A stretch of DNA of 64,000 bases from TPA_inf: Saccharomyces. Taxonomy: Eukaryota. The stretch covers positions 384,001 to 448,000 of the forward strand of contig BK006947.3 in assembly GCA_000146045.2 (NCBI GenBank), given 5' to 3'. The notes beneath the pieces are model-generated. The model was given only the letters and a program-made list of their open reading frames with translations. It ran no database searches and was not told the DNA's origin. The translations under genes and the position numbers were made by a program. Each line of letters begins with the position of its first letter. Position 1 is the stretch's first letter. Positions 24,023 through 28,053 of the stretch are shown here, in pieces.

Positions 24023-24340
24023 TCTCCCTTGCCCCAGTGTACACATATATAAAAATATATTCATGCCTATATGATTATGTATCGGAATCCAAAAACTTAT
24101 CTTTATATTGCTTCGTTTCGTAGTTAGCAATGAATCATCTTATCATGATTCCTTTTTTTGTTTTGGCCAGATTAATGTATCACGGTCGACGGCGAAGGCA
24201 TCAACCATTGTTGTGGAATTTCAAACACAATACTTGATGACTCCAAACGTGGGCATATATTTTGATTTGAAAAGAAGTCGAGAAAGTATAGCAACGCATT
24301 GTATACGTTTGAAGCTTTCAGCAAAGGATATACCGTGGAA

Positions 24341-25909
24341 ATGTACACGCCTATCCCTGCTAATACCCCTGCTCCCACTGCACCAACTTCATCGATGACG
24401 TCCAACTCTTCATCCGCATCAAATGCCAACACCACTAGCAGTAGTGGCATAAACCCAAGGAACAGAGCCAGTGGTACTCCATCCAATGAGCGGGCTCGTC
24501 CGGCGTCGGGTATCAGTTCGTTTTTGAATACCTTCGGAATTAGGCAAAATAGCCAGACAGCTTCTTCTTCTGCGGCTCCTGATCAGCGTCTATTCGGCAC
24601 AACCCCATCTAACTCACATATGAGTGTGGCCATGGAAAGTATCGATACCGCTCCGCAACAGCAGGAACCACGTCTGCATCATCCTATACAAATGCCTCTG
24701 TCGGCCCAGTTCCACGTTCATCGCAACTATCAACTCCCCATCTCCATATCTCTCACTGCCCCTACAACCACAGACCACCAGCAATCATCTGCGCATAATT
24801 TCGAAGGCAACAATGTTGGTAACGTTCAAGAGTCTTTGAATCAGCGGCAGCCTAACGGTACTAACAATACCACAACCTCGATAATTTCCATGGCGCCAGC
24901 GGCTACAACGAGAAATATAGTCGGTGGTGCAGATGGATCTACTATTGTTAACAACAGTCAGGAAATGTATAAGAATTTACGTCACTTGATATATGCTGCA
25001 AACCAGCCAAATGGGACCGAAATTTTACATTTGGATTTACCTGCAACAAGTGCAGAGGAGTCAAACAATATGTTCAATGTAGATGAGGTCACTTTGAAGC
25101 AAAGGAAAGATAAGCATGGTCTTTTTAGTATAAGACTAACCCCATTTATTGATAGTTCGTCCACGACAAATCAAGGTTTATTCTTTGAACCGATTATAAG
25201 AAAGGCTGGCCCTGGATCCCAATTGGTTATTGGCCGCTATACTGAGCGTGTTCGCGATGCAATTTCTAAAATACCTGAACAATATCATCCAGTTGTATTT
25301 AAATCCAAAGTTGTTTCAAGGACACATGGTTGTTTTAAAGTTGACTCTCAAGGTAACTGGTATATAAAGGATGTGAAATCATCTAGTGGAACTTTCTTAA
25401 ATCACCAAAGGCTCTCACCCGCTTCCTCTTTATCGAAAGATACCCCTCTTCGTGATGGTGATATTTTACAGTTAGGAATGGATTTTAGAGGTGGCACGGA
25501 AGAAATCTATCGTTGTGTAAGGATGAGGATTGAGCTAAATAGATCATGGAAACTAAAGGCAAATTCGTTCAACAAAGAAGCTTTACAGCGTTTGCAGAAT
25601 TTACAAAAATTAACTACAGGTATTGAAGAAGAAGATTGTTCGATTTGCCTATGTAAGATCAAACCGTGTCAAGCAATTTTCATATCACCATGCGCACATA
25701 GCTGGCATTTCCGTTGTGTAAGAAGATTGGTCATGCTCTCATATCCGCAATTTGTTTGCCCCAACTGTAGATCAAGTTGTGATTTGGAGGCCTCCTTTGA
25801 AAGTAGTGACGAGGAAGATGAAAGTGATGTGGAAAGTGAAGGTGATCAACTGGTGGATCAACTTAGCGTCTTAATGGAAACTTCAAAGGATGTTGATAGC
25901 CATCCTTAA
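24341..25909 (+). CDS. DMA2: DMA2 (YNL116W), FHA plus RING E3 ubiquitin ligase, 522 aa. The start was taken at the MYTPIPANTP Met, 14 codons inside the track ORF.
   Basis: An FHA-like core and a C-terminal RING (CSICL...CAHSWHFRC...CPNCR) are present. The N-terminus is S/T/N-rich. Confidence 0.75.
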   Translation: MYTPIPANTPAPTAPTSSMTSNSSSASNANTTSSSGINPRNRASGTPSNERARPASGISSFLNTFGIRQNSQTASSSAAPDQRLFGTTPSNSHMSVAMESIDTAPQQQEPRLHHPIQMPLSAQFHVHRNYQLPISISLTAPTTTDHQQSSAHNFEGNNVGNVQESLNQRQPNGTNNTTTSIISMAPAATTRNIVGGADGSTIVNNSQEMYKNLRHLIYAANQPNGTEILHLDLPATSAEESNNMFNVDEVTLKQRKDKHGLFSIRLTPFIDSSSTTNQGLFFEPIIRKAGPGSQLVIGRYTERVRDAISKIPEQYHPVVFKSKVVSRTHGCFKVDSQGNWYIKDVKSSSGTFLNHQRLSPASSLSKDTPLRDGDILQLGMDFRGGTEEIYRCVRMRIELNRSWKLKANSFNKEALQRLQNLQKLTTGIEEEDCSICLCKIKPCQAIFISPCAHSWHFRCVRRLVMLSYPQFVCPNCRSSCDLEASFESSDEEDESDVESEGDQLVDQLSVLMETSKDVDSHP

Positions 25910-26118: not shown

Positions 26119-28053
26119 TTAATCCTCGGTTAGTTTGCCAAGCTCACCTATTAATCTTAATAGGACTTCTTGAGTTTGTTGTTTGCCCAGACCATACTTA
26201 TATATTTCATGCCCACCTTCAACTATTTTCCATTCTTGAGTCTTGTGAGAAATTTTGGTCAAATCTCTTTGCCAATCGCCCCATAATGCCGACTTCTTCA
26301 CCATTTCCTTAGAGCTAACGATGCTTGTCTTCACATTTTGCAAAGATTCTGCATTGTTTGTCACATCTCTGTAACTTAGAATTGAACTCGTCACGCTTTC
26401 CAAAAACTTGGAACGCAAGAAACGTCCTTGATATTTCATATCACGCCCATATATACGTTCTTTAGACCCATGATGAGCTAGTAACCATGAAGTCTGTAAT
26501 CTCCATCCTAAACTCGACCAAATGCCTTTCCACCATAATCTAAATTCGTTATGCCTTTCTATCTCCGAAGGTAACCAAGTCTTATCATGGTTGCGGCCAT
26601 CCCCATCATTACCATTGCCATCGTCGCCATCGTCGCCATCACCACGGCCTGGAGGTAGTAATCTTTGAATGTAGTTTTTTAACAATAGTTCTTCATGCCA
26701 TGATTCAACAAGCATCATGCTATCCACAATATCGACATTCTTGGCGGTAAATACTCTTGTAAATAGCCCGCCAAGGTCGTATCCTACTGTAGTGAAGGGA
26801 CCTTTAATTTTTGCATCTTTGATCAATGCGTACCTTAAAGATTCCGCAACCATCGCAATAGAGATTGGGGCGGGAGGAGAATCGCTCAACCCGTACCCTG
26901 GTCTATCGTATAGACAATATCTTTGAATTTTGTCTAAATGATATAGTTCCTCAATCCAGGTGGCAGAAAGGTAACCAGTATCATAACCTCCGTGTTCAAA
27001 CAAGATGATAGGTTGCTTCTTATTTTCAGACAAATCTGTGTTGTTTTCTTGATCAAATACGTCACCATAACAAGTTATATGCAACTGATAGGTTTTAGCG
27101 GCATCTACGTAATGGAACGCCTCGTACGAGGGCGACTGAACGGTTATTGGTAATTTGTGAGTCAATCTGTAGGTATCCAATGTCGTTAAAAGTGTATTCA
27201 GGGTGAATAAAGCGAAGAATATTAAAATTAAAAACTTAATAGTATTCCTGAACCCAATGGATACCCATTCTGTCAATGTATGTTTGTTTTGGACCAGCTG
27301 CGAGCGGTGGGTGGGGGTTGGCGACCCAGAGCCATATTGGCTTCTGTCCCTGTTTTCGGTACTATTTGTATGGTTTTCGTTGAAAGTACTAATATTAGCA
27401 TCATCAATTCTGCGTTCCTCCAATGGCTCATTTATTGAGTTGTTGTAAAACAAGAGATACCAATCTAATATTGCCCCAATAAAAAATGAAAACGAAGTCC
27501 ACAAATATGTAAACGTGCCCACAAAGCCGATTCTTTGCCTAGTGTATTTAATTAGATAGGTCAATGCTAGATTGAACAACGTCAAAACACAGAGAGTTAC
27601 ATTTAAGCTGTAATCTAAAGCTGAGTACAGTCCCAGCTTATTAAACCAGAGATTGAAAGAATTAGCTATGATCGAGATGAATATTAAAGTCAAGTCGTTA
27701 AAACTTGCGTACCTGTTACTGAATCCGAAAAGAATATTGATATTGAAAAAGAAATCTGAAATCAAAGTGGTGACTAGCCAGATGGTGTTAATTAGAATTA
27801 GGATATTTAATATCCATTTGGAGTTATGAATAAAGATTCTATAACCTTTGCGAATTTGAAAGAGACTATCTTTGATGAACCCATCGGATTCAATGTCACG
27901 ACCTTCATTAACTGCTGGGCCATTCGCGGATCCTGCACCAAGGGTCCGGTGGTTGTTGTTCAGCAACGGTTGCGCTTCTGGGTGTTCACTATCTATATCT
28001 GTTCTTTCCATTCCCGTCCTTGCCGGATCATTATCTAAACCATTAGCCTTCAT
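26119..28053 (-). CDS. YNL115C: YNL115C, uncharacterised membrane protein, 644 aa. A multi-pass hydrophobic N-terminal half is followed by a C-terminal alpha/beta-hydrolase-like region.
   Basis: Hydrophobic segments span roughly residues 75-200 and 265-295. The C-terminal region carries HGG (354-356), a G-Y-D-L-G-G elbow (D426) and GGHE (H615). There is also a Gly/Asp repeat GRGDGDDGDDGNGNDGDG. Confidence 0.7.
   Translation of the reverse strand: MKANGLDNDPARTGMERTDIDSEHPEAQPLLNNNHRTLGAGSANGPAVNEGRDIESDGFIKDSLFQIRKGYRIFIHNSKWILNILILINTIWLVTTLISDFFFNINILFGFSNRYASFNDLTLIFISIIANSFNLWFNKLGLYSALDYSLNVTLCVLTLFNLALTYLIKYTRQRIGFVGTFTYLWTSFSFFIGAILDWYLLFYNNSINEPLEERRIDDANISTFNENHTNSTENRDRSQYGSGSPTPTHRSQLVQNKHTLTEWVSIGFRNTIKFLILIFFALFTLNTLLTTLDTYRLTHKLPITVQSPSYEAFHYVDAAKTYQLHITCYGDVFDQENNTDLSENKKQPIILFEHGGYDTGYLSATWIEELYHLDKIQRYCLYDRPGYGLSDSPPAPISIAMVAESLRYALIKDAKIKGPFTTVGYDLGGLFTRVFTAKNVDIVDSMMLVESWHEELLLKNYIQRLLPPGRGDGDDGDDGNGNDGDGRNHDKTWLPSEIERHNEFRLWWKGIWSSLGWRLQTSWLLAHHGSKERIYGRDMKYQGRFLRSKFLESVTSSILSYRDVTNNAESLQNVKTSIVSSKEMVKKSALWGDWQRDLTKISHKTQEWKIVEGGHEIYKYGLGKQQTQEVLLRLIGELGKLTED

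Follow-up and report, generated by a model that had tools for sequence, protein, structure and literature searches.

The closest described systems to YNL115C, a yeast protein encoded on the minus strand of the 64,000-nucleotide stretch of Saccharomyces DNA analyzed here (contig BK006947.3, positions 384,001 to 448,000; the window), are Cif-like epoxide hydrolases and haloalkane dehalogenases (HLDs). The Cif-like enzymes (Cif of P. aeruginosa, aCif of A. nosocomialis, and Cfl1 and Cfl2 of B. cenocepacia) showed only 12-17% identity. Unlike them, YNL115C lacks the H-G-X-P motif, and a His/Tyr pair for ring opening is not recognisable in it; its cap is broken by a disordered Gly/Asp loop, and its hydrolase domain is fused to a DUF2417 module with five transmembrane (TM) helices. 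Moreover, the Asp in its nucleophile elbow is a secondary acquisition that replaced a Gly, and the lineage goes back to Ser hydrolases. The HLD-II and HLD-III enzymes have in common with YNL115C an Asp-His-Glu arrangement with the Glu after strand beta6, but YNL115C lacks their Trp after the nucleophile, the Asn of HGNP, a second halide-binding residue, and a match to a curated HLD model. In animals, a membrane anchor and an alpha/beta-hydrolase domain with an Asp elbow occur together in EPHX1 (microsomal epoxide hydrolase), EPHX3/4 and MEST/PEG1, and the MEST elbow S-H-D-Y-G-D resembles G-Y-D-Y-G-G. We treat these likenesses as leads only; the animal proteins have a single N-terminal anchor, not a five-TM module. 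EPHX1, EPHX3/4 and MEST were not among our PDB or profile matches, and no dedicated sequence comparison with them was run.

An exhaustive HMMER search was run with a family profile against 1.84 billion representatives. At E <= 1e-10 it returned 425 proteins, 46 of which reached E <= 1e-30, and all retrieved sequences were aligned to the family hidden Markov model (HMM). The closest sequence relatives outside the family were Ser hydrolases of ~300-350 amino acids (aa), which matched the family profile with E values of 1e-13 to 1e-19 and mostly carried an N-terminal hydrophobic anchor. Named members came from Umbelopsis (Mucoromycota), Dinochytrium (Chytridiomycota) and Tieghemostelium (Dictyostelia), and bacterial-like members were present as well. 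This Ser-type clade, which is uncharacterised and carries the generic source label "pimeloyl-ACP methyl ester carboxylesterase", displayed the motifs L-V-G-H-S-x-G-G, R-V-C-x-Y-D-R-A-G-Y-G-W-S-D and L-V-D-S-S-H-E-D. It has in common with the YNL115C family a Cys pair, the DRxGxGxS loop, and an acid after strand beta6 that is followed by H-E-D, but it has a canonical Ser nucleophile and no DUF2417 bundle.

Other fungi have DUF2417 and alpha/beta-hydrolase proteins with Gly in the elbow (Yarrowia YALI0F18656p and proteins of Saitoella, Ascobolus and Dacryopinax, as well as an S. japonicus "hydrolase"). These Gly-type proteins have the two-domain architecture of YNL115C, the Cys pair, the beta6 acid followed by H-E-D, the catalytic-position His, and a cytosolic E-x-x-x-L-L motif in the tail. 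They differ from YNL115C in having Gly for the elbow Asp, His before the elbow in place of Tyr or Phe, and Leu in place of Trp452; they are also shorter (~510-560 aa) and lack the Gly/Asp loop.

The hydrolase domain and its candidate triad

A first-pass annotation of the window, made from the letters of the sequence, had proposed that YNL115C couples a multi-pass membrane region to a C-terminal alpha/beta-hydrolase-like region with an Asp-type nucleophile elbow. The features of the open reading frame (ORF) and of the hydrolase domain are as follows (AF2, AlphaFold2 model).

26119 to 28053, minus strand: complete ORF, YNL115C-type protein of 644 aa, ATG-to-stop frame, member of 100%-identity cluster P0001.
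26197 to 27012, minus strand: alpha/beta-hydrolase fold domain, Abhydrolase_1 match, residues 348-619 (Pfam).
26986 to 26994, minus strand: H354-G355-G356 after strand beta3, at the oxyanion-loop position (motif and alignments).
26767 to 26787, minus strand: nucleophile elbow V-G-Y-D426-L-G-G, residues 423-429, between strand 420-425 and helix 428-438 (AF2, PDB alignments).
26689 to 26706, minus strand: E450-S-W-H453-E454-E455 directly after strand beta6 (443-449), with E450 as the candidate triad acid (conservation, alignment).
26206 to 26217, minus strand: G-G-H615-E, residues 613-616, in the loop that follows strand beta8 (605-611), where the catalytic His canonically sits (AF2, motif).
27070 to 27072, minus strand: C328 in strand beta2, half of a near-invariant Cys pair (conservation).
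26914 to 26916, minus strand: C380 in strand beta4, within R-Y-C-x-Y-D-R-P-G-Y-G, the other Cys of the pair (conservation).

The ORF runs from ATG to stop, and its product was 100% identical to the sequence of cluster P0001 (121 members). Relatives at 85-94% identity were Saccharomyces proteins, some of which bear the name YNL115C; orthologues carrying that name included those of S. arboricola and Z. parabailii. Pfam searches matched residues 26-328 to the whole of PF10329 (DUF2417; 225.6 bits, E 7.6e-67) and residues 348-619 to positions 1-242 of the 245 in PF00561 (Abhydrolase_1; 109.1 bits against a cut-off of 25.8). The E value of the second match (3.8e-31) answers in the affirmative whether a profile search recovers an alpha/beta-hydrolase. 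Both domains were present in 59/59 close homologues. We read YNL115C as the S. cerevisiae representative of an endomembrane protein family that spans Dikarya. Thus, the membrane module and the hydrolase domain are indeed fused, as the first-pass annotation had it, but the fusion is not poorly described in the sense that was suggested: the DUF2417 plus Abhydrolase_1 architecture is already catalogued, conserved across Dikarya and functionally uncharacterised, and is not new as such. What is new in this analysis is the assignment of the triad acid to E450, the argument for a lumenal topology, the recognition of a Cys pair, and the history of the elbow from Ser through Gly to Asp.

The domain shows the features of an alpha/beta-hydrolase: a central beta-sheet, a strand-turn-helix elbow of the form small-x-nucleophile-x-small-small, and structural similarity to solved members. 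The fold begins at about residue 309 with a beta1/beta2 hairpin, and the predicted local distance difference test score (pLDDT) within the domain was 85-95. Searching PDB sequences with either the single domain or the family profile yielded weak matches (E 3e-5 to 5e-3) that were all Ser hydrolases and covered only beta3-beta6; they set the register of the elbow and did not assign the domain to a family. In every PDB alignment (Est1, RtxA, PhaZ), D426 stood opposite the nucleophile Ser. Because of this placement and the Abhydrolase_1 match, the motif set noticed earlier is not a product of chance. Its coordinates (HGG at 354-356, VGYDLGG at 423-429, D426, H615 in GGHE, and a repeat at 469-486) were all exact.

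Conservation differed among the motifs. G355 was invariant in the family, and H354 was found only in Saccharomycetaceae; in other members the corresponding context was E-G-G-Q, E-S-G-H or E-A-G-E (that is, E-[G/S/A]-G). The codon of D426 is GAC (nucleotides [nt] 26776-26778), and D426, H615, G424 and G428 were invariant in 55 Saccharomycetaceae sequences with 40-94% identity. Position 615 was His in 188/199 aligned family members, and position 450 was Asp or Glu in all but one of 210. The motif [D/E]-x-x-H-E-[D/E] after beta6 was kept from the Ser-type outgroup (L-V-D-S-S-H-E-D) through the Gly- and Asp-type fungal proteins, with H453 present in 166/210 members and E454 in 179/208.

In the case of E450, the beta6 Asp of an outgroup protein (P0139) that is equivalent to it aligned with the Glu of "FMEAML" in the HLD DmxA (5mxp), which we take to be the catalytic acid of HLD-II enzymes. 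The spacing from D426 to E450 is 24 residues, as in Cif and Cfl1. In Cif, His128 precedes the nucleophile and the acid is Glu153; the corresponding residues of Cfl1 are Arg122 and Asp147 (PMC8244358). By position, then, the S. cerevisiae protein has a complete candidate triad, D426-H615-E450, arranged as in Cif and HLD-II, and the loss of triad residues that is typical of pseudoenzymes was not seen. The topological positions of the three residues suggest that they are brought together in the folded protein.

The Cys pair was another near-universal feature and is shared by relatives with signal or anchor sequences. C328 was invariant in two alignments and present in 188/201 aligned family members, the exceptions being mostly misalignments; C380 was present in 209/209 aligned family members and in 72/79 outgroup sequences. 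Apparent mismatches in the covariation of the two residues were mostly alignment artefacts, and there was one clean double absence (P0144). A disulfide between C328 and C380 probably braces the lumenal domain.

One further element of this region is a low-complexity loop.

26596 to 26649, minus strand: Gly/Asp low-complexity loop GRGDGDDGDDGNGNDGDG, residues 469-486 (pLDDT <50 for residues 460-492).

The repeat had been described as following the domain. It belongs instead to the domain itself: it sits in the cap insertion, after strand beta6 (443-449) and before the first helix of the cap (503-513). Among orthologues, the loop was variable in length and composition, and it was absent outside Saccharomycetaceae. 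A perfect 9-nt repeat on the plus strand (GCCATCGTC x2.7, positions 26617-26640) underlies it, and this repeat, together with the differences in loop length among orthologues, suggests replication slippage. The best reading of the loop is an acidic linker prone to slippage. We considered and rejected a functional role such as a metal-binding site because the loop is disordered, variable, absent outside Saccharomycetaceae, and built on a short DNA repeat.

History of the elbow residue

Position 426 was Asp in 149 of 215 family members, Gly in 58, Ser in two, and Asn, Ala and Val in one each. In the outgroup (83 proteins, 78 of them aligned), it was Ser in 73. Of the two residues that orthologues were expected to conserve, H615 is kept widely and D426 is kept in Saccharomycetaceae. 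Family-wide the Asp is not conserved, since most fungi outside the budding yeasts have Gly and the ancestral-type relatives have Ser. The Gly-type proteins came from Basidiomycota (Dacryopinax), Taphrinomycotina (Saitoella and Schizosaccharomyces japonicus), Pezizomycotina (Ascobolus, Calycina and Berkeleyomyces) and early Saccharomycotina (Lipomyces, Tortispora and Yarrowia). The Asp-type proteins came from Saccharomycetaceae, Phaffomycetaceae (Wickerhamomyces and Cyberlindnera) and CTG yeasts (Candida, Metschnikowia and Candidozyma auris), as well as from Komagataella, Kuraishia, Pachysolen, Babjeviella and Sugiyamaella. A secondary Gly or Asn within the Asp clade was found in Naumovozyma dairenensis, a Saccharomycopsis-like group, and extra Wickerhamomyces copies.

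A neighbour-joining tree analyzed by Fitch parsimony placed the Asp-type proteins in one clade (127 non-redundant sequences, 120 of them with Asp), with the Gly-type proteins basal to it. On the accepted fungal phylogeny, a Gly root needed ~4 state changes and an Asp root ~8. The elbow likely passed from Ser (AGY) to Gly (GGY) to Asp (GAY), a path on which each codon change is a single step. Taken as a whole, the architectural and evolutionary part of our reading, in which Gly replaced the nucleophile Ser in the ancestor of Dikarya and Asp arose in crown budding yeasts, is very probably correct.

Where Asp was present, His was nearly always present too (145/146 sequences), whereas His was missing in 7/49 Gly-type sequences. 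Several lineages of the Asp clade with a secondary change from Asp to Gly or Asn had also lost the His (P0265, P0278, P0279 and P0070). These counts hint that Asp and His work together where Asp exists, the numbers being small and not phylogenetically independent. We also asked whether Gly-type proteins are more degenerate than Asp-type proteins by scoring both against an HMM built from the Ser-type outgroup. The medians were 98 bits (Gly-type) and 130 bits (Asp-type), and we rejected the difference as evidence because the ranges overlapped fully (the Gly-type Saitoella protein scored 162 bits).

A few individual sequences stood apart. The proteins P0070 (Wickerhamomyces mucosus) and P0110 (W. 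pijperi) were highly divergent, with Asn or Gly in the elbow and the His lost. W. anomalus and W. ciferrii have ordinary Asp-type orthologues, and the two divergent proteins might be additional paralogues on which constraint has relaxed. Another protein, P0114 (574 aa), matched DUF2417 with an E value of 1.6e-42 and carried a full Ser/Asp/His set (G-H-S-W-G-P, F-L-D-P-L-H-E and T-G-H-A-V-F). The named proteins nearest to it were Gly-type Sordariomycete proteins at ~30% identity, and its Ser is either ancestral and retained or the result of a reversal from Gly.

Catalytic and non-catalytic explanations

The likeness to epoxide hydrolases and HLDs that was noted in the first-pass annotation extends to the Asp in the elbow and the His in the catalytic position (D426 and H615). 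The acid also falls in the HLD-II arrangement, with E450 directly after strand 443-449, and the top Foldseek matches were haloalkane dehalogenases (DmxA, 5mxp; the HLD-III enzyme 8ooh; and DatA; E ~2e-8). The likeness does not extend to the other hallmarks. The HLD hallmarks are a Trp that stabilises the halide and immediately follows the nucleophile Asp, together with either an Asn (HGNP) or a second Trp. HGNP was not found in the family alignments, and a second halide-binding residue was not recognisable. No HLD family in NCBIfam was matched by the window protein at E <= 0.01; its only matches, weak and far below cut-off, were to BioH and to an enol-lactonase family (31.8 bits, cut-off 255.85). 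In epoxide hydrolases, the signature is H-G-X-P with an aromatic X and a cis-Pro, along with a Tyr/Tyr or His/Tyr ring-opening pair in the cap (PMC8244358). Two cap tyrosines of YNL115C, Y461 and Y561, were at least 90% conserved in Saccharomycetaceae; Y461 had no counterpart in the CTG and Phaffomycetaceae sequences, and Y561 was Phe in several Asp-type (CTG) yeasts and absent in Gly-type members. A bona fide epoxide hydrolase, or a haloalkane or haloacid dehalogenase, therefore seems very unlikely: the Asp-Trp pair, H-G-X-P, a family-wide ring-opening or halide-binding pair and an NCBIfam HLD match were all missing, and the lineage descends from Ser- and Gly-type ancestors instead.

Our tentatively favoured catalytic reading is that YNL115C is an active lumenal Asp-nucleophile hydrolase that works through an ester intermediate. 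Its domain descends from a clade of membrane-anchored or secreted Ser hydrolases (GHSxGG) with the triad acid after strand beta6 (L-V-D-S-x-H-E-D). In the present protein, D426, H615 and E450 would re-form a triad of nucleophile, base and acid, with the positions and spacing of Cif-type epoxide hydrolases and HLD-II enzymes. The D426 carboxylate would attack an electrophilic carbon of a probably lipid-like lumenal substrate, and the resulting ester (an alkyl- or acyl-enzyme) would then be hydrolysed by water activated by H615 and E450. A residue other than Gly is costly at the strained elbow position of alpha/beta-hydrolases, so the long-term retention of Asp at this position suggests a function. 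We favour the active reading because of this strict conservation, the coupling of Asp with His, and the mimicry of a geometry known to work. If D426 is catalytic, YNL115C would be an Asp-nucleophile hydrolase in the vacuole lumen, a class that, to our knowledge, has not been described for yeast vacuoles.

Several observations weigh against an active Asp hydrolase. The H-G-X-P motif with its cis-Pro was absent in the window protein, which has E-H-G-G-Y-D with no Pro, and in the aligned relatives. A Trp after the elbow Asp was never seen in the family alignments, where residue 427 was Ile, Val, Leu, Tyr or Met. Neither Y461 nor Y561 was conserved outside Saccharomycotina, and the family has no common Tyr/Tyr or His/Tyr pair. 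The literature that we found on YNL115C consisted of lists or localisation data, and a functional study was not found; no papers were found on DUF2417. The protein of Naumovozyma dairenensis, a member of Saccharomycetaceae, has the elbow G-F-G-Y-G-G and is otherwise intact. In addition, the elbow is Gly in Basidiomycota, Taphrinomycotina, Pezizomycotina, Lipomyces, Tortispora and Yarrowia, with the His and the beta6 acid kept. Because the Gly-type members keep the His and acid without a nucleophile, the conserved function of the family may not involve covalent catalysis.

These last observations bear on two explanations that do without an Asp nucleophile. One is that the domain is a non-catalytic pseudoenzyme, a ligand-binding, sensing or scaffolding module on the TM bundle in which D426 is a lineage-specific residue for ligand contact or structure. 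That most fungi manage with Gly, and that the close relative N. dairenensis has reverted to it, makes this quite possible, and YNL115C would then be another little-explored case, a conserved module that binds ligands in the lumen and is attached to a tetraspan-like bundle. Nevertheless, the His (188/199) and the beta6 acid (209/210) are kept far above what is expected of a dead site, even in the Gly-type lineages, the Asp is kept across the budding-yeast members despite its sterically strained position, and the His tends to go along with the Asp when the latter is lost within the Asp clade. Alternatively, the whole family could catalyse a non-covalent reaction, with a dyad of His615 and acid 450, possibly joined by H453 and E454, as the general base that directly activates water or a group of the substrate, and the elbow residue would only tune the pocket. 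Such use of alpha/beta-hydrolase triads is known from cofactor-free dioxygenases, MenH and hydroxynitrile lyases. It would explain why the His and acid persist without a nucleophile, and the His, the Asp or Glu at 450, H453 and E454 are conserved across the Ser-, Gly- and Asp-type members and the Ser-type outgroup. Still, we consider it improbable: no reaction or substrate is known, H453 and E454 also occur in ordinary Ser-type relatives and may be structural, and it does not account for why budding yeasts keep the Asp so strictly.

A more specific form of the active hydrolase reading joins it to the history of the elbow. Here, Ser would have been lost to Gly in the Dikarya ancestor, the lineage would have lasted hundreds of millions of years with no nucleophile, and covalent catalysis would have been regained in budding yeasts through Asp, convergently with the Cif and HLD-II machinery but in the vacuole lumen and on a five-TM tether. 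We regard this sequence of events as somewhat unlikely. If it is true, the family would be a natural case of reversion from pseudoenzyme to enzyme in which the nucleophile, and probably the reaction class, was switched. The family offers a natural Ser, Gly and Asp series at one elbow on an otherwise conserved scaffold, which makes the regain of catalysis by a pseudoenzyme with a different nucleophile directly testable. YNL115C is also one of the yeast membrane proteins that are still uncharacterised, and pathogenic Candida species, including C. auris, carry orthologues of it.

Membrane module, topology and the neighbouring gene

The N-terminal half of the protein has the following features.

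27070 to 27978, minus strand: DUF2417 region, residues 26-328, comprising tail, five TM helices and the beginning of the lumenal domain (PF10329).
27820 to 28053, minus strand: N-terminal hydrophilic tail, residues 1-78, probably cytosolic (pLDDT <50 for residues 1-56).
27961 to 27978, minus strand: acidic di-leucine-type motif E26-A-Q-P-L30-L31 (E26, P29 and L30 at least 90% conserved).
27745 to 27819, minus strand: TM1, residues ~79-103 (hydropathy; AF2 helix 51-101).
27637 to 27702, minus strand: TM2, residues ~118-139, with invariant N131 (hydropathy, AF2 model, conservation).
27544 to 27609, minus strand: TM3, residues ~149-170 (hydropathy, AF2 model).
27454 to 27531, minus strand: TM4, residues ~175-200 (hydropathy).
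27268 to 27453, minus strand: hydrophilic loop, residues 201-262, probably cytosolic (pLDDT <50 for residues 220-255).
27172 to 27246, minus strand: TM5, residues ~270-294, predicted to take the chain to the lumenal side (hydropathy maximum 2.23; AF2 helix 260-298).

The proposed multi-pass region was borne out, as hydropathy gave five hydrophobic helices and the AF2 models contained the same helices. TM1-4 formed a four-helix bundle in the model. Helix 5 has an amphipathic start, K-H-T-L-x-E-W, within loop 201-262, and H258, T259, E262 and W263 were conserved.

Published data allow the module to be oriented. Phosphopeptides have been reported for S42, which lies in the N-terminal tail (nt 27928-27930), and for S244, which lies in loop 201-262 (nt 27322-27324; PMC6528989). 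The two sites are separated by four TM helices, and the fifth follows S244. In published green fluorescent protein (GFP) fusions, the N-terminally tagged protein was at the vacuole membrane and the C-terminally tagged protein in the vacuole. From the phosphosites, the count of TM helices, the GFP data and the near-invariant Cys pair, we infer that the hydrolase domain faces the vacuole lumen. A supplementary table of PMC5947560 quotes a gene description with a mitochondrial GFP fusion, and the score in the same table is vacuole. The label "mitochondrial integral membrane protein" on the Saitoella and Ascobolus orthologues is most likely an annotation propagated from that description.

The position of the di-leucine-type motif was occupied in Gly-type relatives by E-R-T-P-L-L or E-T-T-P-L-L. 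Based on its fit to the [DE]xxxL[LI] class and the localisation at the vacuole membrane, E26-A-Q-P-L-L may be a vacuolar sorting signal. In one protein of 1222 aa (P0098, Calycina marina), the DUF2417 and hydrolase module is preceded by a long N-terminal region with a FYVE-type domain annotation. Such domains bind endosomal and vacuolar phosphatidylinositol 3-phosphate, and the fusion fits an endolysosomal role of the family.

The adjoining ORF (positions 24299-25909, plus strand) encodes 536 aa when read from an upstream TTG. In its product, the N-terminus is rich in Ser, Thr and Asn, and a RING-like segment rich in Cys and His (CSICL...CAHSWHFRC...CPNC) lies at the C-terminal end. The protein resembles a DMA2-type FHA-RING ubiquitin ligase and has no evident link to the YNL115C finding.

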